The notes: generated by a model not told the origin, from the letters alone. 64,000 nucleotides of DNA from Escherichia coli (GCF_003019035.1 NZ_CP027447.1); one strand, 5' to 3'; counted from the first letter of the stretch, positions 3,354 through 53,194 are shown. Made by a program: numbers and translations.

Positions 3354-3389
3354 ACGTCTTTTTCCTCGTTAAGCCACATCTCAGAGCAC

Positions 3390-4039: not shown

Positions 4040-4106
4040 GCGTGTCGGATGCGGCGTGAACGCCTTATCTGTACCAGATAAGACGCGTTAGTATCGCATC
4101 AGGCAA
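4040..4106. repeat. REP (repetitive extragenic palindromic) element cluster
   Basis: GTCGGATGCGGCGTGAACGCCTTATC ... AGATAAGACGCG...GCATCAGGC palindromic units between cvpA and dedD. Confidence 0.5.
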
Positions 4107-4113
4107 GACCGTA

Positions 4114-4776
4114 TTAATTCGGTGTATAACCCATTACCACGCCGCTTAAGCCAGAAAGTTGCTTCAACTCACCCAGCGAACCTTTCAGCTTATCTTTCGA
4201 GGCATCCGGCCCAACCAGAATACGGGTAATTTTACCCTGCACTGGCGTGGATGGCGACGTATAAACCCGATAACCGGCACCGCGCAGCTTACCGACAATC
4301 TCATTCACTTTATCGGCATTTTTCAGCGCCCCCAGTTGTACAACATAGGCTTTACCCGTTGGCGCTGCTTTTTCTTCCACGACCGGCTTCGGTTCTGGCT
4401 TCGGCGCAGGTGGTGCTTCAACCTTCGGTTTCGGCGGCTCCACCGGTTTCGGCTTCGGTGGGGCGACCGGTGCAGGTTCCGGTTCAAACTCGGTGTTATT
4501 GGCTGCAATAGTGGCCGGATCGAGCGACGGTGCTGCGGCATCACCTGCCCGCACCTCTTCCGCTGCGCCTTCCGGCGGCTGCGTCGGCAACGCCTGGGTG
4601 GCGGCTGGCATCATATCAGGCTCATCGCGATCGCCCGCTTTCGGCACCAGCGGGATAGCCGCGAACTCATCCTGATAATGTTTTTTCTGCCCGTCCAGCA
4701 GCCCTGGAAGTACTATCACCCCCAGCGCCACCAGCACGATCGTGCCCACTAACCGATTCTGAAACTTACTTGCCAC
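4114..4776 (-). CDS. dedD: Cell division protein DedD (SPOR domain)
   Basis: Pro/Glu/Lys-rich linker and C-terminal SPOR-like domain; start taken at internal MASKFQNRL. Confidence 0.85.
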   Translation of the reverse strand: MASKFQNRLVGTIVLVALGVIVLPGLLDGQKKHYQDEFAAIPLVPKAGDRDEPDMMPAATQALPTQPPEGAAEEVRAGDAAAPSLDPATIAANNTEFEPEPAPVAPPKPKPVEPPKPKVEAPPAPKPEPKPVVEEKAAPTGKAYVVQLGALKNADKVNEIVGKLRGAGYRVYTSPSTPVQGKITRILVGPDASKDKLKGSLGELKQLSGLSGVVMGYTPN

Positions 4777-6034
4777 CGCTTCTCCTCGCGTCAATCACTT
4801 CCATGACATGTGCGACCGTGTGGAACGAACCACACACCAGCACGGTATCTTCCGCTTTAGCGTCCGCCATTGCGGCATCCCATGCCTGCGCCACGCTATC
4901 AAATGATTTGCCGTTACCCAAATGCTCAAGCAGTTGTTCTGCCGTGGCACCGCGCGGCCCTTCCAGTGGCGCACAATACCAGTCATCAACCACGCTTTTC
5001 AACCAGGCCAGAGTTCCGGCAATATCTTTATCATGTAGCATACCGATAACCGCCAGCACGCGCCCGTTTTTCGGTAGCGCTTTCATACGCCCGGTGAGAT
5101 ATTCCGCCGCATGTGGATTATGCGCGACATCAAAAATAACGCGTGGCGACTCGCTCACAATCTGGAAACGTCCCGGCAAAATTGCGCTGGCAATCCCGTC
5201 GCGAACGGCATTTTCACTGACCTCCAGCCCGCTGGCACGCAGTGCCGCCAGCGCCGTTGCGGCATTCGGTTGCGGGACAAGCGGCAACGGCAGATTTTCC
5301 AGCGTGCCGTGAGCATCGCTAAACGTCCAGTCATGATCGGTGACGGAATAGTTCCACTCAACGCCCCGACGTTGTAACAGTGCACCTTTTTCCTGCGCCA
5401 CATCAGCAATGGTAGAAGGCATTTCCGGCTCACCGACAATTGCCGGTTTTTCGCTGCGGAAGATGCCTGCTTTCTCGCGACCAATACTTTCGCGATCTGG
5501 CCCCAGCCAGTCGGTATGATCCAGCGCAATGCTGGTTACTACCGCGACATCGGCATCGACAATATTGGTTGCGTCCAGACGACCGCCCAGCCCTACTTCC
5601 AGAATCACCACGTCAAGTTGTGCCTGTTTGAACAGCCACAACGCCGACAGCGTACCGTACTCGAAATAGGTCAGGGAAATATCACCGCGTGCCGATTCAA
5701 TCTCCGCAAAAGAGGCGGTGTGGGCCGATTCCGGCAATTCCTGGCCCTGCACACGAACGCGCTCGGTATAACGCACCAGATGCGGTGAACTGTAGACGCC
5801 CACTTTGTACCCTGCCGCCATCAGAATCGACTCCAGCGTACGGCAGGTGGTGCCTTTGCCATTCGTACCCGCAACGGTAAACACAAATGGCGCTGGTTTC
5901 AGAATGCCAAGACGCGCCGCGACCTGGCTCACGCGCTCAAGGCCGAGATCGATAGTTTTACTGTGCAGGTTTTCCAGATAAGAAAGCCACGAAGCCAGAG
6001 GCGACGCGGCTTGAGGAGTGCGTTTGATAATCAT
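4766..6034 (-). CDS. folC: Dihydrofolate synthase / folylpolyglutamate synthase
   Basis: 422-aa ORF, Mur ligase family P-loop (GTNGKGTT). Confidence 0.95.
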   Translation of the reverse strand: MIIKRTPQAASPLASWLSYLENLHSKTIDLGLERVSQVAARLGILKPAPFVFTVAGTNGKGTTCRTLESILMAAGYKVGVYSSPHLVRYTERVRVQGQELPESAHTASFAEIESARGDISLTYFEYGTLSALWLFKQAQLDVVILEVGLGGRLDATNIVDADVAVVTSIALDHTDWLGPDRESIGREKAGIFRSEKPAIVGEPEMPSTIADVAQEKGALLQRRGVEWNYSVTDHDWTFSDAHGTLENLPLPLVPQPNAATALAALRASGLEVSENAVRDGIASAILPGRFQIVSESPRVIFDVAHNPHAAEYLTGRMKALPKNGRVLAVIGMLHDKDIAGTLAWLKSVVDDWYCAPLEGPRGATAEQLLEHLGNGKSFDSVAQAWDAAMADAKAEDTVLVCGSFHTVAHVMEVIDARRSGGK

Positions 6035-6103
6035 GGTATCCGCTGATTCGTTACGGTGAGAATAGCAAAAGGGCAGAGCCAGTGGCCCTGCCCTTATCAG
6101 TTA

Positions 6104-7018
6104 TCAGGCCTCAGGTTCCTGATCTGGTACCGGTGGCACCACTACGCCTTCACGCGGCGCTTCAGGATTCGGCGCTGGCAGATTCATCAACTTCGCCAGA
6201 ATGCTCGCCAGTTTCAGGCGCATTTCCGGACGACGGACGATCATGTCGATCGCGCCTTTCTCGATCAGGAATTCACTGCGCTGGAATCCTGGCGGCAGTT
6301 TTTCGCGAACGGTCTGTTCGATAACACGCGGACCGGCAAAGCCGATTAACGCTTTCGGTTCAGCGATGTTGAGATCGCCCAGCATGGCGAAACTTGCAGA
6401 AACACCACCCATGGTCGGGTCGGTCAGCACGGAGATGTACGGCAAGCCGCGCTCCTGCATTTTTGCCAGCGCCGCAGAGGTTTTCGCCATCTGCATCAGC
6501 GACATCAGTGCTTCCTGCATACGTGCGCCACCAGAGGCGGAGAAGCAGATCAGTGGGCAGTTATCTTCCAGCGCCTGCTCAACGGCACGCACGAAACGTG
6601 CACCCACAACAGACCCCATTGAACCGCCCATAAAGGCGAACTCGAATGCCGCAGCGACAACCGGCATTCCATACAGAGTGCCTTTCATCACCACCAGCGC
6701 ATCTTTTTCGCCGGTTTCTTTCTGCGCAGATGCCAGACGGTCTTTATACTTCTTGGAGTCACGAAACTTCAGCACATCTTTCGGCTCAAGCTCGCTACCC
6801 AGCTCCACAAGGCTTCCTTCATCTAACAGGCTATGCAGGCGATTACGCGCTGTCATACGCATGTGATGGTCACACTTCGGACAGACCTCAAGATTACGTT
6901 CCAGCTCAGCGCGGTATAAAACCTGACCGCAGCTATCACACTTAGTCCACACCCCTTCAGGAATGCTCGCCTTGCGGGTGGGAGTAATGTTGCTTTTAAT
7001 TCGTTCAATCCAGCTCAT
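6104..7018 (-). CDS. accD: Acetyl-CoA carboxylase carboxyltransferase beta subunit
   Basis: N-terminal Cys4 zinc finger (CDSCGQ...CPKCDHH) and carboxyltransferase domain; start set at internal MSWIERIK rather than the extended ORF. Confidence 0.9.
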
Positions 7019-7173
7019 TAGGGACCTTTCTGTCTGAACCTGGTTCGATGCCAGTTTTATCTTTGGGGACGCATAATGCCATTTTTGCCCCCAACAGACC
7101 ATGAATGTTGCACATTAAAACATAACAGCCCGAAACTTTGGATAAAAAAGTGGTCGAACCGCGGAGTTACTTT

Positions 7174-7833
7174 TTATTTTGCGGCGCGTGCCGCAGCGCG
7201 TTTGTGGCGAATAAATTCGAAAACACCTGGCAATATTGAAACAAAAATAATGCCAACAATCATCAGTTTAAGGTTGCTCTGAATGAAGGGGAGCGTTCCG
7301 AAGAAATAACCCGCGTAGGTAAAAATCAGTACCCATAGCAACGCGCCGATGACGTTAAAAGCGGCGAAATGACGGTACGACATGTGGCCCATTCCCGCAA
7401 CAAACGGCGCGAACGTTCTGACGATCGGCACAAAACGGGCGAGAATAATCGTTTTGCCGCCATGTTTCTCATAAAACTGATGGGTTTTGTCGAGATAACT
7501 GCGACGAAAGATTTTCGAATCCGGATTACTGAACAGTTTGTCACCAAATAACCGTCCAATGGTGTAGTTCACCGCGTCACCCACAATCGCGGCGATCAGC
7601 ATCAGCACCACCATCATATGGACGTTGAGATCGTTGGTTTCCAGTGATGCCAACGCACCGGCAACAAACAGCAATGAATCACCCGGTAAAAACGGCGTTA
7701 CCACCAGACCGGTTTCACAGAACAAAATTAAGAACAAAATGGCATAAACCCAGACGCCATACTCCGCGACCAGTTCTGCCAGATGCACGTCAATGTGCAG
7801 GATAAAATCGATGAGGAAATAAATCAGGTCCAT
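7174..7833 (-). CDS. dedA: DedA family inner membrane protein
   Basis: 219-aa multi-TM ORF, conserved position between accD and truA. Confidence 0.9.
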
Positions 7834-7915
7834 ATTTGCCTATGCCTTGTACTCGTCATCTATCAGGCTGTAACTACGTTGGCTACAGCCTGAAATGTTC
7901 CGAGCATTATTCTCG

Positions 7916-8728
7916 TTAGTCCGCCAGAAATAGCGGGCCCATTGGCGGTTTTGGAAGATCATACCGGTCAGGGTAATCCACCGCGACCAGATACAGCCCT
8001 TCCGCTTTTGCCGTTGCTGCCGCCAGCGTTCTGTCCTTTGCCGCTAGCAACTCTGCTATCCAGCTCTCCGGCTGGTTGTGGGCACCGACTTCCATCAGGC
8101 TGCCGACAATATTCCTGACCATATGATGTACAAAGGCATTCGCTTTGATATCTACCACCACATAAGGACCGTGACGCGTGACATTAATATGCATAACGTT
8201 GCGCCACGGGGTCCGGGACTGACACTGCACCGCACGGAACGAGGTGAAATCATTCTCGCCCAGCAAGCATTGCGCAGCCCGATGCATCCGTTCAGCGTCC
8301 AGCGGTTCGTAAAAATGGGTTACCCCTTTACTCAGTACCGCCGGGCGCAGCCGATGATTGTAGATGATGTAGCGATAACGGCGAGCCGTGGCGCTAAATC
8401 GGGCATGAAAATCATCAGGTACAGCTTTAACCCAACGCACGGCGATGTCACCAGGTAAATTCGCATTTACGCCCAACGTCCACGCAGCGTCTTTGCGCTG
8501 CGCGGTCGTTTCGAAATGCACAACCTGCCCGGTGCCGTGTACACCTGCGTCAGTACGCCCGGCGCAGAAGACGGTGATGGGTTCGTTCGCCACCTGGGAG
8601 AGCGCCTTTTCCAGCTTCTCCTGCACACTGCGTACTTCATTCTGCCGTTGCCAGCCGTAATACTTACTGCCGTCGTACTCAATGCCCAGCGCAATTTTAT
8701 AAACTGGCGGTTGTTGCTGGTCGGACAT
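7916..8728 (-). CDS. truA: tRNA pseudouridine(38-40) synthase
   Basis: 270-aa ORF; RTDAGVH catalytic Asp motif. Confidence 0.95.
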
Positions 8729-9741
8729 TAGTACAGATACTCCTGCACCAGTTTCTCGGCGATTTTTACTGCCATCAGCGCGCCGCCAAAGCGAACGTTA
8801 TCGGCCACCGACCAGAACTGAACTTGCTCCGGCATACCGTAGTCATTACGTACGCAGCCAACGGAAAGATGCGGCGTACCAGAAGCATCCCCCACCTGAG
8901 TCGGGAATTCGTTCTCTTCAGAGAGCACAATATCTTCGCCCTGAGCAAACGCATCACGCGCTTCTTCTGCTGCCAGCGGACGCAGTGCTTCAAAGTTGAC
9001 CATCTGGGCATGACCGTAGAATACCGGTGCCTGGACGACGCTTGCCGAAATCATCAGCCCTTCGTCCTGCAGGATTTTGCGTACTTCGTCAACGATACGA
9101 CGTTCTTCACGCACGCTACCTTCGCTATCCGGCAGTAACGGCAGCATGTTGAACGCCAGCTGACGCCCGAAGAAATCTTCTTCATCAATCGGAATGCCGT
9201 TGAGCAATTTCGCACTCTGCCCCGCTAACGCATCGACCGCTTTTTTACCCTGGGCGGAGGCTGAAATCAGGCTGGTAACGCTGATACGTGATAAACCGCC
9301 CTGATCAATTAGCGGTTTCAGTGCCGCCAGCAGTTGGCTGGTCAGACTGTCCGGTACGGCGATGACATTCCGGTTGCGGTAATCGGTCAGTACAAACGGG
9401 TTTACTTCCGGCACCACCAGCGGTACGTCAGGTTCGAGAGCAAACAATCCGCTGCTATCGATCACCAGGCAACCTGAGTTGGTCGCTTCTTCAACCCAGG
9501 CAGCGGTAGCTTCTTTGCCTGCGACAAAAAATGCCAGCTGCGCCTGCGTCCAGTCGAATTCAGCGGCATCCTGCACGGTGATTGTCTTACCACCAAAGCG
9601 CAGTTGTTCGCCTGCGCTTTCGTTACGTGCCAGTGCATAAATTTCCCCAACCGGGAACTGACGTTCAGCCAGCGTTTCAAGCAGGGCTTCGCCCACAGCG
9701 CCAGTTGCGCCCAGGACGGCAATGTTCCAGCCTTCAGACAT
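8728..9741 (-). CDS. usg: USG-1 protein (aspartate-semialdehyde dehydrogenase homologue)
   Basis: 337-aa ORF with N-terminal Rossmann GATGAVG; translationally coupled to truA. Confidence 0.85.
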
Positions 9742-9806
9742 GGTGGTTTACTCCAGAAATAGCAAAGCTCCCTGCCAATATTACAGCAGAGAGCATGAAG
9801 AAGAGA

Positions 9807-10964
9807 TTAACGTGCCGGATGATGGACGGCGTTAAAACCCAGTTTACACAGCAATGATGCCGCACTGGCGTCATCACAAATTACATACAGAGATGACCAT
9901 TCACGGCGCTCAAGATAGTTTTTGCGCAGCTTATCGAACTCACCCGGTATTCCGGCGACTTTACGCAGCGGCGCGTCATCGCGGCGCACATCATACACCA
10001 AATGCACCAGCCTTTTCAGCGTCGGTTGATCGAGCGGGCCATGCAGCGTAATGCGACCAAACTCTGGCGCGGGCAGCAACGTATCCAGCGCAACGTGTTG
10101 TTCATGCCCAATAAACTTGCTATAAGCTTCAAACACTTGCGTAGTACCGCGTGCTTTACCTTCCAGGGTATAGCCTGCGATATGCGGCGTGCCGATATCC
10201 ACTTTTTTCAGCAATTCCACGTTAAGTTCCGGTTCGCCTTCCCAGACATCCAGCACTACGCTTAACTTCTGGCCTTCGTTCAGGCAGGTCAGCAGGGCGG
10301 TATTATCGACGACTGCGCCACGGCAGGCGTTAATCAGAATCGCTCCTGGTTTCAGGCTGCGGATCAGTTTTTCATCCGCCAGATGCAGCGTTTTGTACGG
10401 ACCATCTTTAAAGAGTGGCGTATGGAAAGTCAGAATATCCGCATGCTGAACTAATTCATCCAGCGAGCGGAAATCCCCCTCATCCCCACGGTCGGCGCGG
10501 GGCGGATCGCAAAGTAAGGTTTTGATCCCTAAAGCTTCCAGTCGCGCCTGTAAACGACGACCAACGTTACCAACGCCAACGATCCCCACGGTACGCTCGT
10601 GCAGTGAAAATCCATCGCGTTCGGCAAGCATCAGCAGGGAGGAGAAAACATATTCCACCACCGCAATCGCATTACAGCCAGGTGCCGCGGAAAAACCAAT
10701 TCCCGCCTGCTTTAACCACGCTTCATCGACATGGTCGGTCCCCGCGGTGGCAGTGCCAACAAATTTAATGGGTTTTCCTGCCAGCAAAGATTCATTCACT
10801 TTCGTGACCGAACGCACCATCAGCGCATCCGCGTCTGCCAGTTGAGCGACGGGGATTGGACGCCCGGGAACCGCGGTCACCTCACCCAAACGGCTAAATA
10901 AGTCGCGGGCATAAGGCATATTTTCATCAACAAGGATTTTTAACCCTTTTTCAGTCTCTGACAA
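9807..10964 (-). CDS. pdxB: Erythronate-4-phosphate dehydrogenase
   Basis: D-2-hydroxyacid dehydrogenase fold; matches remembered PdxB ([15 protein letters not shown]...). The codon at the canonical start position is TTA here, so the start is uncertain; the ORF track's TTG at 10964 is used. Confidence 0.9.
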
Positions 10965-11122
10965 TCTAAGGCTCCTTTATTAACAAACGCCCATTTGCAA
11001 ACTGCTGTTTAATCTGAAAAAACATTCATAATCATACAGATAACAACATAACCATTTAGACGGGCAATACTGAAAAATTGTTATTCAGTATCGCCCTTTA
11101 AGCCGTTTCAGGCTATATAAAA

Positions 11123-12142
11123 TTAATCCCCCGTGGACACTGCGTGGACACTCACGCCACCTTTCAGCGGATTAAGGGCCACCGCATCCTGCAGGTAATC
11201 CGGTGCAAAATGTGCATATGCCATTGTTTGCTGAATGGTTGCGTGGCCAAGAATCTTCTGAAGCGCAATAATGTTTCCTCCGTTCATCACAAAATGGCTG
11301 GCGAACGTATGCCGCAGCACATGTGCAGCTTGGCCTTTTGGCAAATCGGGCTTAACTCTTTTCAGCGCCAGGCAGAATTCCCGGTACTTCACCTCAAACA
11401 AGCCGCCTGTTTCTCTGGTTTTGATCGCCTCACAAACTGCCTGCGAAATTGGCACTGTTCTCTTTCGGCCATTTTTGGTTTCAAGAAACGTTACACGGTT
11501 ATGAACTATCTGTTCACCACGAAGCTTACAAGCTTCACTCCAGCGCGCCCCCGTGCTTAAACACAAAAGCGCAACACGCCAGTAATCGCCCTCCAGTGTA
11601 TCGAGCAATAGCGCCACTTCCTTCTGGGACAGGAAAGCCATTTCTCGTGGAGATACATAAAGAATAGAAATTCCCCTTACCGGATGTTCTGCATCCCAGA
11701 GGCCTATTTTCTTCAGTATGGTAAACATTCCGGATAACCGATTCATGTATCTGTTAGCAGATGACGGTTTCAATCCATCAGCTATCTTTTGAGAACGCCA
11801 CGCGATAATTTTTAGCTTATCAAGATCCACAGCCTGCATATCAGCGCCAAGCTCATTGATTATGTTGCGCAGTTGTTTTCGGTCTTCTTCCGCCTTACGC
11901 CTGTGCTGGCCGTGATACATCCACCACAACTCAAGCAAATCATTTAGCGTTCGACGATCACGGTAGCCCTGTATATATTCCCGCTTTTCAGCGTTCGCCA
12001 TGATGTAGCGTTCAGTGGCCACCGCTACCGATTTTTTGTCAAATACCTTACGCACGCGCTTTCCCTTGCGTCCGTTCGGCCTGATGTCCAGCAAATAACG
12101 ACCATCTTCGAGCTTCTTAATCGACATTGCGAAGCCCTCCAA
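11123..12142 (-). CDS. int: Phage integrase (tyrosine recombinase, P2 Int-like)
   Basis: 339 aa; C-terminal catalytic HxxR ... Y motif (HVLRHTFAS ... MAYAHF); adjacent to att core. Confidence 0.9.
   Translation of the reverse strand: MEGFAMSIKKLEDGRYLLDIRPNGRKGKRVRKVFDKKSVAVATERYIMANAEKREYIQGYRDRRTLNDLLELWWMYHGQHRRKAEEDRKQLRNIINELGADMQAVDLDKLKIIAWRSQKIADGLKPSSANRYMNRLSGMFTILKKIGLWDAEHPVRGISILYVSPREMAFLSQKEVALLLDTLEGDYWRVALLCLSTGARWSEACKLRGEQIVHNRVTFLETKNGRKRTVPISQAVCEAIKTRETGGLFEVKYREFCLALKRVKPDLPKGQAAHVLRHTFASHFVMNGGNIIALQKILGHATIQQTMAYAHFAPDYLQDAVALNPLKGGVSVHAVSTGD
11138..11150. repeat. attL core (CACTGCGTGGACA), inside the last codons of int
   Basis: exact 13-bp repeat (17/18 with flank) also at 46825-46837. 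Confidence 0.5.
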
Positions 12143-27368: not shown

Positions 27369-27872
27369 GTGAACCCCATGAGTATGGTTGCCAGAACCAA
27401 CCCCGGACCCGCAGAGGACGACATCACCGATACCGATGATGGTGATACCCGTATTTCAGCGGGTGCATTCTGGCCGGATATTGTGCTGCGTGAACTGCGT
27501 CTGGCGGTACGACTGCCGGGGCGCGTGACCACCTCCCGCCTGCTGCATACCGCCACCGGAGCTGTGGCACACGTTACCCGCGAGCTGGAAGCATGGCAGC
27601 AGGAACAGCAGGCGGCTGGCCATCAGACGCTGGCCGATGTTCCGGCACCCGTAATTAACGGAGAAAGCGTCAATCTCTGGCACTGGCGCAATGCTGTTTA
27701 TACCGCCACACGCGCCCTGATTCTGGAGCGTTACCGCGATGCGGACACAACGGACAAGGGCGACCGCCGGGCGGACGCACTGGATATACAGACATCGGAT
27801 TTGTGGCGCGATGTGAGCTGGGCCATCTCTGACATTCTGTGCCGCCCGCGAATCTTTGCGGAGTTGTGCTGA
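27369..27872 (+). CDS. Head completion/stabilisation protein (P2 gpL-like)
   Basis: 167 aa, position after gpM. Confidence 0.8.
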   Translation: MNPMSMVARTNPGPAEDDITDTDDGDTRISAGAFWPDIVLRELRLAVRLPGRVTTSRLLHTATGAVAHVTRELEAWQQEQQAAGHQTLADVPAPVINGESVNLWHWRNAVYTATRALILERYRDADTTDKGDRRADALDIQTSDLWRDVSWAISDILCRPRIFAELC

Positions 27873-28072
27873 TGAAAGTGAAGGCACTGGAAGGCGACAC
27901 CGTGGATTCGCTCTGTTTCCGGTACTACGGCACGACGCAGGGCGTCACCGAAAAGGTGCTGGATGCCAACCCCGGACTCTGTCAGCAGGTATTTCTGGAC
28001 GCCGGGCAGGAAGTGGAGATGCCGGAGCCGGAGAAGAAGAAACGAGAAATGATTCAGTTGTGGGGGGAGTAG
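27872..28072 (+). CDS. Tail protein X (P2 gpX-like)
   Basis: 66 aa from MKVKALEGDTVDSLCFRYYG, resembles P2 X; ATG overlaps gpL stop. Confidence 0.7.
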   Translation: MKVKALEGDTVDSLCFRYYGTTQGVTEKVLDANPGLCQQVFLDAGQEVEMPEPEKKKREMIQLWGE

Positions 28073-28074: not shown

Positions 28075-28398
28075 GTGAGCACCATTCAAACAGGGATCAC
28101 AGAGCAGGTTATTGCGTGGCTCTTTGACCACCTGCCAACGGTGTATGCAGTAGGCGCGGCGGTCAGCATTTCCGCGCTGATGAGTCTTTATGACGGACGA
28201 ACACTGGTTCAGACCGTAACGGGATCGCTGGCGTGCGGCGTTCTTGCCATGGCCGTGGCCGGGTCGTTGCGCTTCTTCGGTTTTCCTGAAGATGCCGTGA
28301 CGTTTATTGGCGCATCAATCGGTTTTATGGGCGCAGAGAAAGCACGCGACAAGGTTATTGCAGCCTTTAATCGCAGGGTGAAGGAGAAGGACGAATGA
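28075..28398 (+). CDS. Holin (P2 gpY-like)
   Basis: about 107 aa from GTG, two or three TM segments, charged C-terminus; precedes endolysin. Confidence 0.55.
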   Translation: MSTIQTGITEQVIAWLFDHLPTVYAVGAAVSISALMSLYDGRTLVQTVTGSLACGVLAMAVAGSLRFFGFPEDAVTFIGASIGFMGAEKARDKVIAAFNRRVKEKDE

Positions 28399-28787
28399 GC
28401 AACACATTTAAATTCAGCAGCCGGAGCGAAAAGAATTTGCAGGGCGTAAATCCTGATCTGGTGAAAGTGACCCGACGGGCACTGGAAATTTCGGAAGTGG
28501 ATTTTGGTATCACCGAAGGGTTGCGCAGCCGTTACCGCCAGAAGCAACTTGTGGCCACAGGTAAGAGCCAGACCATGAACAGCCGCCACCTTACGGGGCA
28601 TGCCGTGGATGTTGTGGCTTATATCGGCAGCCAGGTGTCATGGGAATGGCCGCTGTACGAAAAAATCGCAGCAGCATTCAGACAGGCCAGCCGGGAGCTG
28701 AATATTCCGGTGGAATGGGGCGGCGACTGGAAGACCCTGAAAGACGGACCGCATTTTCAGTTGCCACACGGAGCCTATCCGGCATGA
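28395..28787 (+). CDS. Endolysin, peptidase M15-type (L-alanyl-D-glutamate peptidase-like)
   Basis: 130 aa with SRH...D...H zinc-peptidase arrangement; replaces the lysozyme K of P2. Confidence 0.8.
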   Translation: MSNTFKFSSRSEKNLQGVNPDLVKVTRRALEISEVDFGITEGLRSRYRQKQLVATGKSQTMNSRHLTGHAVDVVAYIGSQVSWEWPLYEKIAAAFRQASRELNIPVEWGGDWKTLKDGPHFQLPHGAYPA

Positions 28788-29311
28788 AGCTCTGGCCCAC
28801 GCTTGGCGTCGCTTTCCTTCTGATTGCCGGATGGGGAACATCCATGCGTCTGTCGTGGTCACTGGGCCGGGAGAACGCCAGAAACGAAGCGCAGGCCAGC
28901 GCCCTGAAAAGCACCGTCGACACCCTGAATATCATCAGCGCCGGGGTACAGGATATGCAGCAGGTGCTGGCGCAACTCCGCGTGGAAAATCAACAGAGAA
29001 ATCAGGACGGAGAGGCCAGACGTGAACAGCTACGCAACGATATTGCAAAAGATGAATGCGCCCACGCTTTGCCTGACGCTCGTTTTACTGACAGGTTGCG
29101 CAGGCACGCAGAACGCGCCACTGCCAGCGCCGTCAGTCCGGCTTATACCGCAGACGCTGACCATACCGGTAACGCCTCCCCCCCTTCCCTGACACTCCCA
29201 CATGGGGAAATCTCGGTATATGGGGCGACCGCCTTCTGGATGCACTGGAAACCTGTAACGCTGATAAACGGGCCATTGAATTACTGGAACAGCGCAGGCT
29301 GCAACGACTGA
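28784..29311 (+). CDS. Rz-like i-spanin
   Basis: start MKLWPTLGVAFLLIAG (N-terminal TM), coiled-coil-rich; ATG overlaps endolysin stop. Confidence 0.6.
   Translation: MKLWPTLGVAFLLIAGWGTSMRLSWSLGRENARNEAQASALKSTVDTLNIISAGVQDMQQVLAQLRVENQQRNQDGEARREQLRNDIAKDECAHALPDARFTDRLRRHAERATASAVSPAYTADADHTGNASPPSLTLPHGEISVYGATAFWMHWKPVTLINGPLNYWNSAGCND
29051..29191 (+). CDS. Rz1-like o-spanin lipoprotein, embedded in +1 frame of the i-spanin gene
   Basis: 46 aa, lipobox LLTGC, Pro-rich mature part; not in ORF track because under 60 aa. Confidence 0.45.
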
Positions 29312-29329
29312 ACAACGAGGATAACAACC

Positions 29330-29797
29330 ATGCTGAAAACTGATTCCCTGCGTGAAGCCATGACCCGTTCATGCCGATGGTGTCAGGCCAACCCGGAAAA
29401 ATTCACCATTTTCGTGGAGAGCGGCAACATTGAAACGACCGGAGAAACCCCATCGTTTGTTTACCACTATCAGATGGTGATGTTTGTCATGGATTACGCC
29501 GGAGAGCTGGACGACCTCACGCTGCCGCTGCTGGCGTGGTTATCCGAAAATCAGCCACAGTTGTTGCTCAATCCGGAGCGTAATCAGGACATCAAATTTT
29601 CTGCCGTTATCAATGACGATGACAGCGCCGATCTCCTGTTTACGCTCCCCCTGCGGGAACGCGTTCGCATCACGCGCAGCAGTCAGGGTACACCGCAGGC
29701 AGAACACCTGCCGGAGCCAAAACCCCGCCTGCCCTCTTCCGAAGGCGACTGGTCGCATGTATTCCAGGATGTGACGTGGAGTGAAAGCGATGGATAA
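29330..29797 (+). CDS. Tail completion protein R (P2 gpR-like)
   Basis: 155 aa, same length and position as P2 R. Confidence 0.8.
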   Translation: MLKTDSLREAMTRSCRWCQANPEKFTIFVESGNIETTGETPSFVYHYQMVMFVMDYAGELDDLTLPLLAWLSENQPQLLLNPERNQDIKFSAVINDDDSADLLFTLPLRERVRITRSSQGTPQAEHLPEPKPRLPSSEGDWSHVFQDVTWSESDG

Positions 29798-32250: not shown

Positions 32251-32851
32251 TTCGTTGTTACCACCATCAGCCAGCAATTTCATGCGTTGTGCCGAAGCCG
32301 TCGGAACACGCATTACAGACATTCCGGTAGACCTCAACACGCTGTGGTCGCCGGACACCTGCCCGGTGCATCTGCTGCCTTATCTCGCCTGGGCGTTTTC
32401 CGTTGACCGCTGGGATCGCAACTGGCCGGAAGAGACAAAGCGACAGGTGATTCGTGATGCATGGCTGATACACCGACACAAAGGGACCATCAGCGCACTG
32501 CGAAGAGCCGTGGAGCCTCTCGGCTACCTGATTGAAGTAAAGGAGTGGTGGCAACTCAACGAGGAGCCGGGAACATTTCGCATTGTTGTCGGAGTACTTG
32601 ATCAGGGCATCACCGATGAAATGTATCAGGAACTTGAGCGCCTTATTGCGGATGCAAAACCAGTAAGTCGCCATCTGACAGGGCTGGCGATCAGCCTGAG
32701 TGTGAACGGAAAGATTTTCGTTGGTACGGGATGCTATCACGGCGATGCCCTGACGGTTTATCCCTACACCCCGGAGTCCATTATTGTCGAAGGGGATTAT
32801 TTCCCTGCCCCGGCCATTCATTTAATTGATAATCTGAGAGTAAACGCATGA
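32243..32851 (+). CDS. Baseplate/tail protein I
   Basis: start at MSNSLLPP overlapping gpJ stop; position matches P2 I. Confidence 0.8.
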   Translation: MSNSLLPPSASNFMRCAEAVGTRITDIPVDLNTLWSPDTCPVHLLPYLAWAFSVDRWDRNWPEETKRQVIRDAWLIHRHKGTISALRRAVEPLGYLIEVKEWWQLNEEPGTFRIVVGVLDQGITDEMYQELERLIADAKPVSRHLTGLAISLSVNGKIFVGTGCYHGDALTVYPYTPESIIVEGDYFPAPAIHLIDNLRVNA

Positions 32852-34353
32852 CAGTGAAATACTACGCCATTCTGACTAATCAGGGCGCGGCACGACTGGC
32901 TAACGCGACGATGCTCGGCAGTAAGCTGAATCTGACGCAAATGGCCGTTGGTGATGCAAATGGTGTGTTACCAACACCAGACCCTGCACAAACAAAACTG
33001 ATTAACCAGAAACGCATTGCACCGCTGAATCTTCTGAGTGTTGACCCTAACAATCAGAGCCAGATTATTGCGGAACAAATCATCCCTGAAAACGAGGGAG
33101 GATTCTGGATCCGTGAGATTGGTCTTTATGATGATGAAGGCGTACTTATTGCGGTGGCAAACTGCCCGGAAACGTACAAACCGCAGTTGCAGGAAGGCAG
33201 TGGACGCACCCAGACTATCCGCATGATTCTGGTTGTCACGAACACCGAAGCCATCACGCTGAAAATCGACCCGTCAGTGGTTCTGGCAACCCGCAAATAT
33301 GTGGATGATAAAATCTCAGAGCACGAACAGTCACGACGTCACCCGGACGCCTCGCTGACCGTAAAAGGTTTTACTCAGTTAAGCAGTGCAATTAACAGTG
33401 AATCAGAAACACTGGCCGCAACACCGAAAGCGGTTAAGGCTGCATATGACCTGGCTAACAGGAAATATACCGCCCAGAACGCCACCACTACACAAAAAGG
33501 GATTGTTCAGCTCAGTAGCGCCACGAACAGCACGTCTGAAACGCTGGCAGCGACACCAAAAGCTGTTAAGGCGGTAATGGATGAAACGAACAAGAAAGCA
33601 CCATTAAACAGCCCGGCACTGACCGGAACGCCAACAACACCAACAGCGCCACAGGGGACTAATAATACCCAGATCGCAAGCACGGCTTTCGTTATGGCTG
33701 CGATTGCCGCACTTGTAGATTCGTCCCCTGATGCACTGAACACGCTGAACGAACTGGCTGCGGCGCTGGGCAATGACCCGAACTTTGCGACTACCATGAC
33801 TAACGCGCTTGCGGGTAAGCAATCGAAGGATGCCACCCTGACGGCGCTGGCGGAGCTTGCTACATCAGCAGATAAACTCCCATATTTTACAGGGGCAGAT
33901 CGTGCCGCGTTAACCGCGTTGACAAGTGTTGGACGTGCCATTCTTGGTAAAACCAGCACTCAGGGAGTTCTTGATTACCTTGGTTTGGGGGAAGGCTCTG
34001 CGCTGCCCGTTGGTGTACCTGTTCCATGGCCCTCAGCCACACCGCCAACGGGGTGGCTAAAATGTAACGGAGCAGCATTTTCTTCTGAAAAATACCCCAA
34101 ACTGGCAAAGGCTTACCCAACGTTAAAATTACCGGATTTACGGGGTGAGTTTATCCGTGGCTGGGATGATGGGCGCGGGATTGATGCGGGACGTACCCTG
34201 CTTTCTGGGCAGGATGGTACAAGTTTTTCTCATTACGGAGGTAATTTCGACATTGGGTCTGGTCATTCAATCAATAACTATGACCAAATTGTTTCTAACC
34301 AACCAGGCTTTTCCCGTTTTTCATTTGCGGGCCTTCACGAGGTGATGGGTTAA
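32848..34353 (+). CDS. Tail fibre protein H, constant region fused to a C-terminal cassette that carries a frameshift
   Basis: 501 aa; contains crossover site at 33968-33993 and the conserved GEGSALPVGVPVPWP...RGEFIRGWDDGRG block; ORF ends before the conserved cassette terminus, which is out of frame at 34364-34411. Confidence 0.85.
   Translation: MTVKYYAILTNQGAARLANATMLGSKLNLTQMAVGDANGVLPTPDPAQTKLINQKRIAPLNLLSVDPNNQSQIIAEQIIPENEGGFWIREIGLYDDEGVLIAVANCPETYKPQLQEGSGRTQTIRMILVVTNTEAITLKIDPSVVLATRKYVDDKISEHEQSRRHPDASLTVKGFTQLSSAINSESETLAATPKAVKAAYDLANRKYTAQNATTTQKGIVQLSSATNSTSETLAATPKAVKAVMDETNKKAPLNSPALTGTPTTPTAPQGTNNTQIASTAFVMAAIAALVDSSPDALNTLNELAAALGNDPNFATTMTNALAGKQSKDATLTALAELATSADKLPYFTGADRAALTALTSVGRAILGKTSTQGVLDYLGLGEGSALPVGVPVPWPSATPPTGWLKCNGAAFSSEKYPKLAKAYPTLKLPDLRGEFIRGWDDGRGIDAGRTLLSGQDGTSFSHYGGNFDIGSGHSINNYDQIVSNQPGFSRFSFAGLHEVMG
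33968..33993 (+). repeat. Invertase crossover site 1 (hix/gix-like 26 bp), inside H
   Basis: TTCTTGATTACC-TT-GGTTTGGGGGAA; left half resembles hix TTCTTGAAAACC; right half shared with five other sites. Confidence 0.7.
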
Positions 34354-34404
34354 TTATGTAACCATTCGTCCTCGTAATATTGCGTTTAATTACATCGTAA
34401 GGGC

Positions 34405-34430
34405 AGCATAAAAACGTTGGTTTGGGGAAG
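34405..34430 (+). repeat. Invertase crossover site 2
   Basis: AGCATAAAAACG-TT-GGTTTGGGGAAG, same orientation as site 1. Confidence 0.65.
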
Positions 34431-34897
34431 GCTCTGCGCTGCCCGTTGGTGTACCTGTTCCATGGCCCTTAGAAACACCGCCAACGGGGTGGCTAAAATG
34501 TAACGGAGCAGCATTTTCTTCTGAAAAGTACCCCAAGCTGGCAAAAGCCTACCCCACCAATAAATTACCGGATTTACGGGGTGAATTTATTCGTGGCTGG
34601 GATGATGGGCGAGGAATTGATGCAGCACGCGCTTTATTGAGCATTCAAACCGGGATGTTGGAAAAACACCGCCATATTGTTGTAGCTAACGATGGATATG
34701 ACACAAAGGATGAATGGGAGTTGGCCACGATTTTCAAAAAAACATATACACAAGGCAGGGGGCTTGATGCCACAAATACAGGAGGGAGTTTGATTCCATC
34801 ACCAACGCTTCATTCACGAGGAAGTATTGGTAACACAGGTGGTAGTGAAACCCGCCCCCGCAATATTGCATTTAACTATATCGTGAGGGCGGCTTAG
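34431..34897 (+). other. Promoterless alternative tail-fibre C-terminal cassette (cB)
   Basis: begins with conserved GEGSALPVGVPVPWP... block right after site 2, ends with conserved ...ETRPRNIAFNYIVRAA; no start codon of its own. Confidence 0.6.
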
Positions 34898-34903
34898 TTA
34901 TAT

Positions 34904-35515
34904 TCAACTGGCTGCTGCCAGTGGTATTTCCGGCCAGTTGATATCTGATGCCATGTTTATATCCATTGCGTTCAGTGCGTCTATATAATCCAGCACGGCG
35001 TTAAGCCGGGTGGTTTCTGCCTGCGTCAACTTCCGCCCGGCCCGCAACTTCAACTGAATCAGACTAATGGAAGCCATTGCAGTATCAATCAGCGACTGGC
35101 GCTGTGTTTCTGCCGCTTCTACTGCGGCGCTATGCTGTGCCTCGGTATCCGTCACCCATTTTTCACCATCCCATTTATCGTATGGTGTTAACGGGGCGAT
35201 AGTGGTTGTATTTTTCGGGTAGTCACCCAGCGTCGTGATTTCTTCGGTGTTTCCCGTATCAGTGCTATAGACGGTTTCACCACGATGATCTGGCGTATAC
35301 TCCCATGAATTTAAATTCTCCGAACGGCGGATAGCATAGCCCGCTTTATGTGCGCCCGGGGCATCTAAACAGGAATTTGCCGGAATACCGACACCCGCAG
35401 CAAGATATTCAGTTGATTCGGAAATATATTCCCGTGTCTCACCATCATAGTTATAAACGACGATGTTTCCTGCCTGTACGGCAATAAGGTCATCATTTAA
35501 TATCGCGTTATTCAT
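34904..35515 (-). CDS. Tail fibre assembly protein (Tfa; P2 gpG / Mu U family)
   Basis: 203 aa; typical Tfa size and composition; directly follows cassette c1 on the minus strand. Confidence 0.85.
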   Translation of the reverse strand: MNNAILNDDLIAVQAGNIVVYNYDGETREYISESTEYLAAGVGIPANSCLDAPGAHKAGYAIRRSENLNSWEYTPDHRGETVYSTDTGNTEEITTLGDYPKNTTTIAPLTPYDKWDGEKWVTDTEAQHSAAVEAAETQRQSLIDTAMASISLIQLKLRAGRKLTQAETTRLNAVLDYIDALNAMDINMASDINWPEIPLAAAS

Positions 35516-35964
35516 TATGCGGTTCTCACAATATAATTGAAGGCAATATTGCGTGGGCGGGTTTCATTCCCCTCTGAGGATTCCGTTCTGTATTGACTGG
35601 TAAATCTACCGTTAATTGCACCTTGCCGGACGGCGTTATCTGTCGACAACAGACTATCCCCTCCTTTGTCATTTGGCACCAGTACCGTGTTATCCCACGC
35701 ATCCCATGACCGAATATTATGATAATGACTTCCTGTTAACCACCCCTGCATGCTTAAGATGCCCCTTCCGGCATCCACCCCGCGCCCATCATCCCAGCCA
35801 CGAATAAATTCACCCCGTAAATCCGGTAATTTTAACGTTGGGTAAGCCTTTGCCAGTTTTGGATACTTTTCAGAAGAAAATGCTGCTCCGTTACATTTTA
35901 GCCACCCAGTTGGCGGCGTGGCTGAGGGCCATGGAACGGGCACACCAACGGGCAGCGCAGAGCC
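35515..35964 (-). other. Alternative tail-fibre C-terminal cassette c1 (minus strand)
   Basis: GEGSALPVGVPVPWP...RGEFIRGWDDGRGVDAGR..., variable middle, ends ...ETRPRNIAFNYIVRTA. Confidence 0.65.
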
Positions 35965-35990
35965 TTCCCCCAAACCAACGTTTTCATGCT
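35965..35990 (-). repeat. Invertase crossover site 3
   Basis: minus strand AGCATGAAAACG-TT-GGTTTGGGGGAA. Confidence 0.65.
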
Positions 35991-36442
35991 GCCCTTACGA
36001 TGTAATTAAACGCAATGTTATGGGGGCGTGTTTCAGATGCTGTGCGAACTGAGCGAGAGGCGTCGAATGTCCATACAGAAGCACCATATCCTTCAATGAT
36101 CTCAGTTGGTTGTAAGCCTACTGATAATATAGAGTCAGTTTGACTAAATGGTCCTGAATTAAACGCATCTTTAAAAAGCTGAGTACGCCCAAAAGTGCCA
36201 ACTATATTCTGAATAGCGTCAGACTGTGCAGACAGTAGGTTGCGCCCATTATCAACGCCCCGTCCGTCATCCCAGCCGCGAATAAATTCGCCCCGTAAAT
36301 CCGGTAATTTATTGGTGGAGTAGGCCTTTGCCAGATTGGGGTACATTTCAGAAGAAAATGCTGCGCCGTTACATTTCAGCCACCCCGTTGGCGGCGTGGC
36401 TGAGGGCCATGGAACGGGCACACCAACGGGCAGCGCAGAGCC
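35984..36442 (-). other. Alternative tail-fibre C-terminal cassette c2
   Basis: same conserved 5' block, distinct variable region, ends ...RPHNIAFNYIVRAA. Confidence 0.65.
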
Positions 36443-36468
36443 TTCCCCCAAACCAACGTTTTTATGCC
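36443..36468 (-). repeat. Invertase crossover site 4
   Basis: minus strand GGCATAAAAACG-TT-GGTTTGGGGGAA. Confidence 0.65.
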
Positions 36469-36881
36469 GCCCTTACGATGTAATTAAATGCGATATTTCG
36501 CGGCCTGACAGCAACAAAATTTATACCATCACCTACAGAGTTACTGGTGAAATTAAATCGTGAAAATCCTGGCTGATTTCCGACGATGCCATCATGAAAA
36601 TTAATTGCGTGCCCCGCACCATCACCTATATTTCCGGCACGCTGAGAAAAATTTGTAGCCTCTTGGCTGCTTAATAATGCTCGCCCATTGTCCACACCTC
36701 GTCCATCATCCCAACCTCGAATAAATTCGCCCCGTAGATCCGGCAATTTATTGGTGGGGTAAACCTTTGCCAGATTTGGGTACTTTTCAGAAGAAAATGC
36801 TGCTCCGTTACATTTCAGCCACCCCGTTGGCGGTGTGGCTGAGGGCCATGGAACAGGTACACCAACGGGCAGCGCAGAGCC
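36462..36881 (-). other. Alternative tail-fibre C-terminal cassette c3
   Basis: same conserved 5' block, distinct variable region, ends ...VRPRNIAFNYIVRAA; the cassette currently fused to H looks like a frameshifted relative of this one. Confidence 0.65.
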
Positions 36882-36907
36882 TTCCCCCAAACCAACGTTT
36901 TCATGCG
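36882..36907 (-). repeat. Invertase crossover site 5
   Basis: minus strand CGCATGAAAACG-TT-GGTTTGGGGGAA. Confidence 0.65.
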
Positions 36908-37398
36908 GCTCTTACGATGTAATTAAACGCAATGTTACGAGGACGGTTTTCGTTTGCAGTTGGAACAATTCTTGAAGCATCAAGGCCAATCACTTTTGGG
37001 TAAACAGCGCCATCTGTTCTTTCTGTCACCATACTTCTGACTAAGGAGAAATAACTATTGTTCGTTGAGGGGCTCAAAGGCACTACTGCCCCCTTAAACG
37101 AACCTACTGATTCCCATATTGAATAATTTTCGGTGTTTACAGTCTTGAACTCACCATAGATATTACGTATGGCATCGCCCTGAGCGGATAATATTGCCCT
37201 CCCCGTATCCATACCACGTCCGTCATCCCAGCCACGAATAAATTCACCCCGTAAATCCGGTAATTTTAACGTTGGGTAAGCCTTTGCCAGTTTTGGATAC
37301 TTTTCAGAAGAAAATGCTGCTCCGTTACATTTTAGCCACCCAGTTGGCGGCGTGGCTGAGGGCCACGGAACGGGCACACCAACGGGCAGTGCAGAGCC
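36901..37398 (-). other. Alternative tail-fibre C-terminal cassette c4
   Basis: same conserved 5' block, longest variable region, ends ...NRPRNIAFNYIVRAA. Confidence 0.65.
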
Positions 37399-37424
37399 TT
37401 CCCCCAAACCAACGTTTTCGTTTT
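37399..37424 (-). repeat. Invertase crossover site 6
   Basis: minus strand AAAACGAAAACG-TT-GGTTTGGGGGAA. Confidence 0.6.
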
Positions 37425-37478
37425 TATCCCTACCTATACCAACTATGTATTTTTCACGAAACAAAGAGGATGTTTTTT

Positions 37479-38078
37479 ATGCAAATTGGCTATATTCGTG
37501 TGTCAACAAATGACCAGAACACGGATTTACAACGCAATGCACTGAACTGCGCAGGATGTGAACTGATTTTTGAAGATAAAATCAGCGGAACGAAATCAGC
37601 CAGACCGGGATTGAAAAAACTGCTCAGAACGCTATCAGAAGGAGATACGCTGGTTGTCTGGAAGCTGGACAGACTGGGCAGAAGTATGAAACACCTGATT
37701 ACGCTTATTGAGGAATTGCGGGAAAAAGGTGTTAATTTCCGTAGTCTGACGGACAGCATTGACACATCAACACCCATGGGGCGTTTCTTTTTTCACGTCA
37801 TGGGGGCTTTAGCCGAAATGGAACGTGAATTAATTGTAGAGCGTACACTGGCCGGACTGGCAGCAGCACGCGCACAAGGACGCATTGGCGGACGTCGCCC
37901 GAAGTTGACAAAAGAACAACACGAGCAAATAGCGAGGCTGATTAAAAACGGTCATGACAGGAAACAACTGGCGATCATTTACGACATCGGCATATCGACG
38001 ATTTATCGTTATCACCCTGTAGGCGATATACAGGCTGAAGAAACAACCAGGCAGACTCAGGAAAATGAAAACCGCTAA
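37479..38078 (+). CDS. Serine DNA invertase (Hin/Gin/Cin/Pin family)
   Basis: 199 aa; N-terminal GYIRVSTNDQ catalytic Ser motif, resolvase core, C-terminal HTH; AGAGGA Shine-Dalgarno. Confidence 0.9.
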   Translation: MQIGYIRVSTNDQNTDLQRNALNCAGCELIFEDKISGTKSARPGLKKLLRTLSEGDTLVVWKLDRLGRSMKHLITLIEELREKGVNFRSLTDSIDTSTPMGRFFFHVMGALAEMERELIVERTLAGLAAARAQGRIGGRRPKLTKEQHEQIARLIKNGHDRKQLAIIYDIGISTIYRYHPVGDIQAEETTRQTQENENR

Positions 38079-49441: not shown

Positions 49442-50662
49442 TTAATCTTTCAGCTTACGCATTACCAGCGTGGCGTTGGTGCCGCCGAAGCCGAAGCTGT
49501 TAGACATAACGGTAGTCAGTTCGCGATCGGTCGTTTCGGTCACAATGTTCAGACCCGCAGCCTGCTCGTCCAGCTCTTCAATGTTGATGCTCGGTGCGAT
49601 AAAGCCGTGTTCCAGCATCAGCAGAGAGTAGATAGCTTCCTGTACGCCAGCAGCGCCCAGAGAGTGACCGGTCATTGCTTTGGTTGCAGAAATCGCCGGG
49701 CTCTTATCGCCGAACACTTCACGGATAGCCGCCAGCTCTTTCACGTCGCCAACCGGAGTCGAAGTACCGTGGGAGTTCAGGTAGTCGATTGGGGTATCAA
49801 CACCGTGCATCGCCATCTTCATGCAGCGCACTGCACCTTCGCCAGACGGAGCAACCATGTCTGCGCCATCAGAGGTTGCGCCGTAGCCAACGATTTCAGC
49901 ATAGATGTGAGCACCACGCGCCAGCGCGTGTTCCAGCTCTTCAACCACTACCATACCGCCACCGCCAGCGATAACGAAACCGTCACGGTGAGCGTCGTAA
50001 GTACGGGAGGCTTTTTCCGGGGTGTCGTTGTATTTAGTAGACAGCGCACCCATCGCGTCGAATTCACAAGCCATTTCCCAGCACAATTCTTCGCCGCCAC
50101 CAGCAAACACGATGTCCTGTTTGCCCAGTTGGATCTGCTCTACTGCGTTACCGATACAGTGTGCGGAAGTCGCACACGCGGAGCTGATGGAGTAGTTAAC
50201 GCCGTGAATTTTAAACGGCGTGGCGAGGCAGGCAGAAACGCCGGATGCCATCGCTTTGGTGACCACATACGGGCCAACCGCTTTCAGGCCGCGCGGGCCG
50301 CGCATTGCGTCAGCGCCGAAAACCTGGAAACGCGGGGAGCCGCCGCCGGAACCTGCAATCAGGCCAACGCGCGGGTTATTCTGGTAAGCTTCCGGGGAGA
50401 GGCCAGCATCTGCAATTGCCTGCTCCATAGAAAGGAATGCATAAATGGATGCGTCGCTCATAAAGCGCACAACTTTGCGGTCAATGAGGCCAGTGGTATC
50501 CAGTTTTACGTTGCCCCAGACGTGGCTACGCATGCCGGAATCCTTCAGCTCCTGAGAGAAAGTGATCCCTGAACGTCCTTCACGCAGAGATGCCAGGACT
50601 TCCTGCTGGTTATTACCGATGCTGGAAACAATGCCCAGGCCAGTAATCACTGCACGTTTCAT
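49442..50662 (-). CDS. fabB: 3-oxoacyl-ACP synthase I
   Basis: 406 aa, condensing-enzyme Cys-His-His architecture; matches remembered FabB. Confidence 0.95.
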
Positions 50663-50754
50663 TCAATACCTCTGTAAGTCGCACATAGAGTAAGTTTCGC
50701 ATGCACAATAGCGTACACTTGTACGCCGAACAAGTCCGATCAGCCAATTAATAG

Positions 50755-52827
<2,073 letters not shown>

Positions 52828-52845
52828 TCTGCTCTGGCATTGCTT

Positions 52846-52875
52846 GCCGGATATGGCGTGAACGCCGCATCCGGC
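52846..52875. repeat. REP-like palindrome
   Basis: GCCGGATATGGCGTGAACGCCGCATCCGGC. Confidence 0.4.
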
Positions 52876-52882
52876 ACATTAC

Positions 52883-53161
52883 TTACTGCTGTGACGCCTG
52901 CTGAAACAGGTGTTCCCACATATCGGTCACCAGCGCCTGGTCACGCGGCGACAATTCACCGGCACCAATGGCTTTTTCCAGACTCTGGCTAACGGTTGTA
53001 TGTACCGCCTGAGCGGAGTGGTCGTCACCACTTTCCAGTTCTGCGATGGCTAATGTCAGGTGGCCACGCAAATACCCACTGGCAAACAACTCATCATCAC
53101 TGGCATGGTCAACCATACCGTCGATTAATGCCAGAATGCGTGATTCAAACTCCGCGATCAT
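52883..53161 (-). CDS. yfcL: YfcL (DUF1493-type small protein)
   Basis: 92-aa ORF at conserved position. Confidence 0.8.
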
Positions 53162-53194
53162 CTTCTTTCCTCATTGTAAAACGTGGCGCTGGCT

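Follow-up and report, generated by a model that had tools for sequence, protein, structure and literature searches.

Kongari et al. (2018) define embedded, overlapped and separated architectures for phage spanin genes, take P2 as the paradigm of the overlapped arrangement, and report no family in which embedded pairs are mixed with other architectures (PMC6139136). In the P2 record, lysB occupies 7922–8347, lysC occupies 8202–8492 and gene R begins at 8455, and the annotation gives both spanin genes as non-essential, with an effect on the timing of lysis. In lambda, lysis is blocked when either of the two spanin subunits is defective, and spherical cells remain (PMC5295617). Escherichia phage P88 and P88-like prophages carry a lysis cassette with the gene order X, holin, M15 endolysin, DUF2570 i-spanin, LysC and R. 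The window analysed here, a 64,000-nt stretch of an Escherichia coli chromosome (NZ_CP027447.1), holds a cassette with this same order, and its DNA identity to P88 and to the P88-like prophages is 97.8–99.4% over the whole cassette. The initial annotation, made from the sequence of the window, had described an o-spanin gene embedded within the i-spanin gene. We found that the embedded arrangement is traced best to a single extra base in a cassette whose spanin genes are natively overlapped.

This part of the E. coli chromosome is best explained as a P88-like prophage (Xuanwuvirus, Peduoviridae), seen here at the lysis cassette of its late operon. Identity is 97.6–98.7% to Escherichia phages P88, PhiR44_2, 520873 and others and reaches 99.4% to prophages; of the 5426 complete E. 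coli genomes, 1099 carry a relative of the cassette. The late genes of the window run in the P2-like order L, X, holin, endolysin, spanins, R, S, V, which bears out the initial annotation's description of a conserved operon. From the ORF listing and the sequence, the cassette is a compact run of + strand genes whose stops and starts overlap; all coordinates below are counted from the first nucleotide of the window and refer to that strand. Immediately 5′ of the cassette lies the gene for tail protein X (gpX; 66 aa, 27872–28072; PF05489, 8e-21), and the spanin genes are followed by the gene for tail completion protein R (gpR; 155 aa, 29330–29797; PF06891, 1e-39). The holin gene (28075–28398) has a GTG start and encodes a 107-aa protein of the lambda-S family and class I type. 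The protein passes the Pfam threshold for that family (PF05106; 71.1 bits, cut-off 23.8) and matches the phrog_126 ‘holin/anti-holin’ group at 1.7e-35, while its score against the NCBIfam equivalog TIGR01594 holin_lambda falls slightly under the cut-off (54.5 against 55.05). Hydrophobic windows were found in a Kyte-Doolittle scan of the holin.

The endolysin gene runs from an ATG at 28395 to a stop ending at 28787. The initial annotation had called its product a 130-aa M15-family peptidase, to be checked by profile search, and that call holds up: the protein passes the threshold of PF13539 (Peptidase_M15_4; 46 bits, cut-off 25) and matches phrog_465 ‘endolysin’ at E=5e-77, and the same Kyte-Doolittle scan found no hydrophobic segment, in keeping with a cytoplasmic endolysin of the canonical type that depends on a holin. 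NCBIfam gave nothing useful for this protein. Among PDB sequences the matches include 23ri (2e-48), ChiX (5OPZ; 2.5e-48 over 126 aa), 8Q2G, named ‘peptidoglycan L-alanyl-D-glutamate endopeptidase’ (3e-46), and the T5 endolysin 2MXZ (9e-23). Residues H65, D72, H120 and D117 align with ChiX His68, Asp75, His123 and the catalytic Asp120, whose roles as Zn ligands and catalytic residue are described for ChiX (PMC5778951). The motifs SRHLTGHAVD and DGPHFQL are identical in the two proteins, so that the Zn ligands and the catalytic Asp of the endolysin are conserved. The assignment to the soluble M15C/LAS Zn metallopeptidases is thus solid, and the fold of the protein is settled by its sequence matches to solved structures. 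Since the matches near 1e-48 are to enzymes of measured activity, the protein is a probable L-alanyl-D-glutamate endopeptidase. Being intact and close to structurally solved enzymes, this M15C endolysin is also relevant to phage-derived reagents.

The initial annotation had further proposed that this endolysin stands in place of the P2 lysozyme, as a modular replacement within the operon. In agreement with that proposal, the endolysin is unrelated to P2 gpK (BLASTP E=0.5, with P2 gpK in phrog_90 rather than phrog_465), a result that comes from PHROGs and BLASTP, Pfam having returned no match for P2 gpK or lysA. Modular replacement is a fair description, as the holin family has also been swapped (PF04550 for P2 holin Y, PF05106 in the window) and the lysA gene of P2 is absent.

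An i-spanin following the endolysin had been noted in the initial annotation, and we recovered it as an ORF of 175 codons at 28784–29311, whose ATG overlaps the endolysin stop as ATGA. The product matches phrog_214 ‘Rz-like spanin’ at 1e-41, with the match covering only aa 2–138 of the 175. Its score against PF10828 (DUF2570) lies under the cut-off (15.9 bits against 26.6), as does its score against the NCBIfam LysB model (13.7 bits against 92.75), and similarity to P2 LysB was not detectable by BLASTP (E=2.2). The PHROGs of the window and P2 i-spanins cross-match weakly (~2e-4), and the i-spanin is related to LysB only at a distance. No 19-residue Kyte-Doolittle window reached the cut-off of 1.6 at the N-terminus, where the hydrophobic stretch at aa 3–21 has a mean of ~1.3 by hand calculation; an N-terminal membrane anchor is predicted from family membership and visual inspection. 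In relatives the i-spanin is 135 aa long and ends in NASPLP. In the window, residues 1–133 are native and residues 134–175, encoded from ~29183, form an out-of-frame tail made by an extra C.

Within the i-spanin ORF and in its +1 frame, 268 nt from the i-spanin start, lies a 46-aa ORF that begins at an ATG at 29052 and ends with a stop at 29192 (MNAPTLCLTLVLLTGC...). It encodes an N-terminal fragment of a LysC-family o-spanin, with the lipobox LLTGC at aa 12–16 and a predicted lipidated Cys16. The initial annotation had placed this ORF at 29051–29191, so that the ORF and its lipobox are present as described and the span is off by one. The predicted lipoprotein signal is supported, in that LTGC fits the lipobox consensus [LVI][ASTVI][GAS]C quoted in PMC6139136. 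A stricter lipoprotein pattern, one that requires K/R, matches only when translation begins in frame at GTG 29022 or TTG 29043; the n-region of the signal peptide that starts at ATG 29052 has no K/R. GGAGAGG lies 6 nt before the GTG, which as an alternative start gives a 56-aa product with MNSYATILQK added. Gene callers report o-spanin forms of 106 aa (P0122) and, in PGAP, 89 aa (P0123), and the o-spanin is annotated inconsistently across identical RefSeq sequences.

A permissive lipoprotein pattern matches 10 of the 2233 start-defined ORFs of at least 40 aa in the window, so the lipobox alone is non-specific and counts as weak rather than primary evidence; it is synteny and family matches that lift this ORF above chance. 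The family matches are themselves incomplete, as the 46-aa ORF misses the PF23793 threshold (15.3 bits, cut-off 27, positions 2–33 of the 69 in the profile) and matches phrog_456 at E=0.013, covering 12–53 of 102. The profile searches for spanin families that the initial annotation had called for thus support its i-spanin through phrog_214 but not through PF10828, and leave its o-spanin ORF under the PF23793 cut-off. NCBIfam gave no usable match for the 46-aa ORF or for the repaired LysC described below.

Both spanin ORFs change character at the same short tract, a C homopolymer at 29178–29184. The window has seven bases there (C7), whereas P88, PhiR44_2 and all listed E. coli relatives have six. 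The 1271-nt query aligns to 1270 nt in every match listed, and a four-way alignment of the window, S87, FDN-11 and P88 has a single gap, located in the C tract. Among IMG/VR relatives, all 32 have a six-base tract, which reads C6 in 30 and CCCCCA in the other 2. When one C was deleted in silico, the window yielded a 135-aa i-spanin ending in NASPLP and a 96-aa LysC that extends to 29343. The repaired LysC passes PF23793 (48.6 bits against the cut-off of 27, profile positions 2–64), matches phrog_3001 at 3e-25, and matches phrog_456 at 2.6e-15 nearly end to end (aa 2–91 against 12–99 of 102). Without the deletion, the C-terminal half of the o-spanin is stranded in the third frame at 29185–29343, where translation is uninterrupted (FPDTPTWGNLGIWGDRLLDALETCNADKRAIELLEQRRLQRLNNEDNNHAEN and then the stop) and where the conserved ETCNADK segment now lies out of frame and is no longer read from the LysC start.

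The repaired layout is the one that relatives carry. RefSeq relatives have a 135-aa DUF2570 protein, and many also have an overlapping ‘Rz1-like lysis system protein LysC’; LysC in the relatives ends 14 nt inside gene R. In one such relative (L001), the i-spanin gene lies at 2210–2617 and lysC continues to 2768, giving an overlapped layout that holds in the window only after removal of one C. Embedding was absent from all intact (C6) relatives examined, and the only loci sharing it (L040, L041 and L039) all carry the same +1 shift. On this comparison of sequences, the embedded 46-aa o-spanin is best read as the product of a 1-nt insertion (C6 to C7), not as a native design. The initial annotation was therefore right that the spanin pair includes a lipobox ORF in the +1 frame, and its embedded architecture gives way to the overlapped one seen in C6 relatives.

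Substitutions on the 3′ side of the tract tell the same story about reading frame. Across 30 distinct spanin-region sequences there were 17 substitutions 3′ of the tract, a small sample in which 11 were synonymous and 6 nonsynonymous when read in the LysC frame, against 2 synonymous and 15 nonsynonymous in the frame of the 175-aa tail. Restricting the count to 29193–29311 gave 8 S : 5 N for LysC and 2 S : 11 N for the tail. The direction of the contrast is clear, indicating that the DNA 3′ of the tract evolved as LysC and not as an extension of the i-spanin.

Taken at face value, the window could encode a natively embedded cassette resembling lambda Rz/Rz1, in which a functional 175-aa i-spanin gene contains a functional 46-aa lipoprotein o-spanin gene. 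The two ORFs do exist, and signal peptide, lipobox and a proline-rich stretch are all retained in the fragment; lambda Rz1 in its mature form is also short (40 aa) and proline-rich (PMC6139136), and the C7 allele persists on at least 58 contigs. We nonetheless regard native embedding as very improbable, given that all intact relatives are C6 with an overlapped pair and that the 46-aa ORF scores under the LysC gathering threshold while the C-terminal half remains intact and conserved in another frame. The 42-residue i-spanin tail, moreover, has a substitution pattern that lacks purifying selection and lies beyond the reach of the phrog_214 match, the fragment has no Cys after Cys16 and so none in the periplasm, and the Pfam scan found no match to the lambda Rz1 family for the window ORFs. 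If the pair is natively overlapped, the extra C might instead be a homopolymer sequencing or assembly error, with the real phage carrying an intact C6 pair. No error is commoner in long-read assemblies than a one-base indel in a homopolymer, and the exact C7 61-mer and 101-mer each occur in 0 of 5426 complete RefSeq E. coli genomes. Yet the exact 175-aa product (P0074) has several NCBI accessions in the public collection and is recorded on at least 58 public contigs and, across NCBI and Logan, in 81 index blocks. Over 562 nt that include C7, the window is matched base for base by two loci of independent assembly, Logan SRR27539014 and GCA_031883055.1. When 11.5 kb of structural genes were compared with P88, PhiR44_2 and FDN-11, a single uncompensated indel was seen in coding sequence, the C-tract indel at 29178, and there is none in the 14 kb of host flank, where window and strain SCU-301 are 100% identical. 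As 29178 is the sole such indel, widespread homopolymer error in the prophage was rejected. The other uncompensated single-base indel, T6 versus T5 at 25372, is shared with FDN-11 and lies just 5′ of an ATG that we read as the likely start of the capsid gene. With P0074 on many contigs, identical independent loci and no further coding indels, an error in the read would be a most unlikely source of the extra base, and C7 is, on the sequences compared, a real and lineage-specific allele. We therefore hold it to be highly likely that the locus is a P88-like cassette with natively overlapped spanins, a real C7 frameshift allele and a resulting spanin defect.

The C7 allele is not alone at this site. 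P0074 is identical over aa 1–131 to the wild-type 135-aa variant P0110 and differs by at least two residues from other +1 alleles, and the P0002 group and P0003 carry +1 alleles on quite different haplotypes. A C4-like −2 allele at the tract yields a 174-aa product, C5 alleles fuse the i-spanin to the LysC C-terminus to give 185 aa, and a G insertion in the tract is found in L039. The tract is, from these alleles, a recurrent indel site, a soft spot in the spanin pair, and frameshifts in the spanin genes of these prophages are no rarity. A long-lived frameshift lineage was considered on the basis of a 477-member cluster that includes the 155-aa P0004; it was rejected on finding that the cluster is mixed and consists mostly of 135-aa wild-type proteins and partials, and that P0004 itself stems from a separate G insertion in the tract. 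Recurrence of +1, −1 and −2 alleles across haplotypes, together with the control of both genes by one tract, raises the idea of a functional switch, whether phase variation among C5, C6 and C7 or programmed +1 slippage that yields full-length LysC. Runs of proline codons are +1-prone sites, which also speaks for a switch. Contingency loci in E. coli with proficient mismatch repair would, however, call for a tract longer than six, the predominance of C6 in IMG/VR and the absence of the C7 61-mer from complete genomes fit poorly with switching, and frameshifts occur elsewhere in the pair as well, such as the G4 to G3 change 5′ of the tract in L025, which fits relaxed selection in prophages. A switch therefore seems highly unlikely. 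The tract appears to be a place where inactivating indels recur in P88-like prophages, which fits spanins being only weakly selected while the phage is a prophage. A bolder proposal would be that a one-base slip in the shared C6 tract repeatedly converts an overlapped pair into a formally embedded one, with the C7 pair still lytic or the tract acting as a reversible switch. This we consider barely credible; were a C7 pair with a mature o-spanin of ~31 aa lytic, or the tract a switch, it would be the first natural family to span the embedded and overlapped architectures.

From the families to which the proteins belong, lysis by the intact cassette would begin with the holin permeabilising the inner membrane at a set time, after which the endolysin would cross and cut the L-Ala-D-Glu bond of peptidoglycan stem peptides, and the spanin complex would then fuse the inner and outer membranes. 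The extra C strikes both overlapping spanin genes together. The o-spanin shrinks from 96 aa to 46 and retains its signal peptide, lipobox and ~30 proline-rich residues, with ~30 of 81 mature residues left; among the 51 lost residues are its sole periplasmic Cys and its conserved WGD...CNADK...helical half. Read-through lengthens the i-spanin from 135 aa to 175, so that 133 native residues are followed by 42 unrelated ones. By analogy with lambda Rz/Rz1, the C7 spanin pair is probably non-functional: nonsense mutations in lambda Rz1 as far along as W46 of 60 cause a lysis defect, and lambda Rz tolerates loss of its last residue only (PMC5295617). The holin and the endolysin would still work and disruption of the outer membrane would be impaired; cells would be expected to turn spherical and be stabilised by Mg2+, and phage release to be late or inefficient.

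The severity of this defect could be less than the lambda comparison implies. Kongari et al. argue that extra residues at the i-spanin C-terminus need not abolish interaction (PMC6139136), and on that argument the i-spanin half may still be competent. Short proline-rich o-spanins exist, an observation that counts against loss of function. Because lysB and lysC are non-essential in P2, the phenotypic cost of C7 may be small, and a prophage that can stay viable without spanins, as the P2 analogy suggests, would explain why the allele persists. The presence of the C7 allele on dozens of contigs indicates that it has not been rapidly purged. Some full-length LysC could also be made if ribosomes slipped +1 at a low level on CCC-CCC-C, an idea based on the tendency of proline codons to +1 slippage. 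A polar effect of the frameshift on gene R is not expected, as R retains its own GAGGA ribosome-binding site 7 nt 5′ of its ATG, and outside the spanin pair the prophage looks intact.

This kind of cassette is already known, annotated in RefSeq and widely distributed, and C7 is an ordinary frameshift allele of it. The main value of the analysis is accordingly one of correction, in that the seemingly embedded spanins belong to a common cassette, present here in a frameshifted copy. An indel in a region of overlap alters two gene models at once, and a broken overlapped pair can thereby mimic an embedded one.

Set beside known systems, the window differs from P88 at the tract itself, with P88 having C6, a 135-aa i-spanin and a 96-aa LysC where the window has C7, 175 aa and 46 aa. 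The intact relatives share the P2 lysB/lysC arrangement, in which the o-spanin gene, read in the +1 frame, opens within the 3′ portion of the i-spanin gene and runs past its stop, and P2 LysC, like the LysC of intact relatives, overlaps the start of gene R. P2 LysC and the repaired window LysC both match PF23793 and phrog_456. Where P2 is overlapped, the frameshift in the window turns the overlap into a formal embedding. The endolysin belongs to a prophage late operon, whereas its close match ChiX serves chitinase secretion in Serratia marcescens from a bacterial operon. The likeness to lambda Rz/Rz1 is formal and consists of a short proline-rich lipoprotein ORF that the i-spanin ORF contains in full, in the +1 frame; the embedding of the window pair is not conserved in its relatives, and while lambda needs either Rz1 Cys29 or Rz Cys152 (PMC6139136), the window fragment has no periplasmic Cys. 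The window resembles a mixture of embedded and overlapped architectures in form, and does so only through a frameshift of an inactivating type.

Annotation of the o-spanin in RefSeq was uneven among prophages whose LysC frame is intact, as is evident from the lists of cassette matches and from the loci of two relatives, L001 versus L002. The lysC coding sequence is annotated in E. coli strain S87 and absent from the annotation of strain FDN-11, the LysC frame being intact, and the o-spanin product is at times labelled ‘hypothetical protein’. Where PGAP did annotate lysC, its start was placed at an internal codon that yields 89 aa, rather than at the ATG (96 aa) or the GTG (106 aa).

Independent spanin frameshifts were also observed in other relatives, namely at loci L025 and L039 and in the proteins P0006, P0013 and P0118. 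At L025, a run of four Gs within the i-spanin gene is shortened to three at the equivalent of window position 28943, while L039 bears an extra G in the equivalent of the window’s C tract. C5-type alleles encode fusion proteins of 182–185 aa, with the N-terminus of the i-spanin and the C-terminus of LysC; such i-spanin/LysC fusions appear to be included in the tail of the ‘Rz-like spanin’ profile phrog_214.

Elsewhere in the prophage, position 25372 lies in a stretch of six Ts in the window, versus five in the related phages P88 and PhiR44_2, a short way 5′ of an ATG that we read as the start of the capsid gene (GGAGCAAATTTTTTATG). The longer run is common to the window and FDN-11, and the difference shifts the distance from the Shine-Dalgarno sequence to the start codon by 1 base.

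The prophage, whose integrase lies at 11123–12142, occupies approximately 10941–45700, and the best matches of the two host flanks differ (window 1–12000 versus 50000–64000). On the right, the side of mnmC, aroC, prmB and yfcO, 14 kb are 100% identical to E. coli SCU-301; on the left, the side of purF, folC, accD and pdxB, the best identity among complete genomes is 99.0%, and SCU-301 was absent among the 8 left-flank matches and the 30 cassette matches listed. The segment that separates the P2-like prophage from the conserved host flank (45984–49175) contains an ORF for an N6/N4 DNA methylase (45984–46775) and one with a GemA-like match below threshold (47005–48000); it may represent a small island of its own or the remnant of a phage.

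The stretch at 32848–38078 has the appearance of an invertible tail-fibre region with several cassettes. It comprises a single full tail-fibre gene on the plus strand (32848–34353; Phage_tail_fib, fibre repeats and Collar domain), followed on the minus strand by a tail-fibre assembly gene (34904–35515) and four promoterless-looking Collar-domain cassettes (35515–37464). The end of a resolvase-family invertase ORF is at 38078. Compared with P88, FDN-11 and PhiR44_2, the region aligns only partially, with patchy matches of 81–87% as far as 33895, and from 37485 on it aligns with P88 alone of the three.
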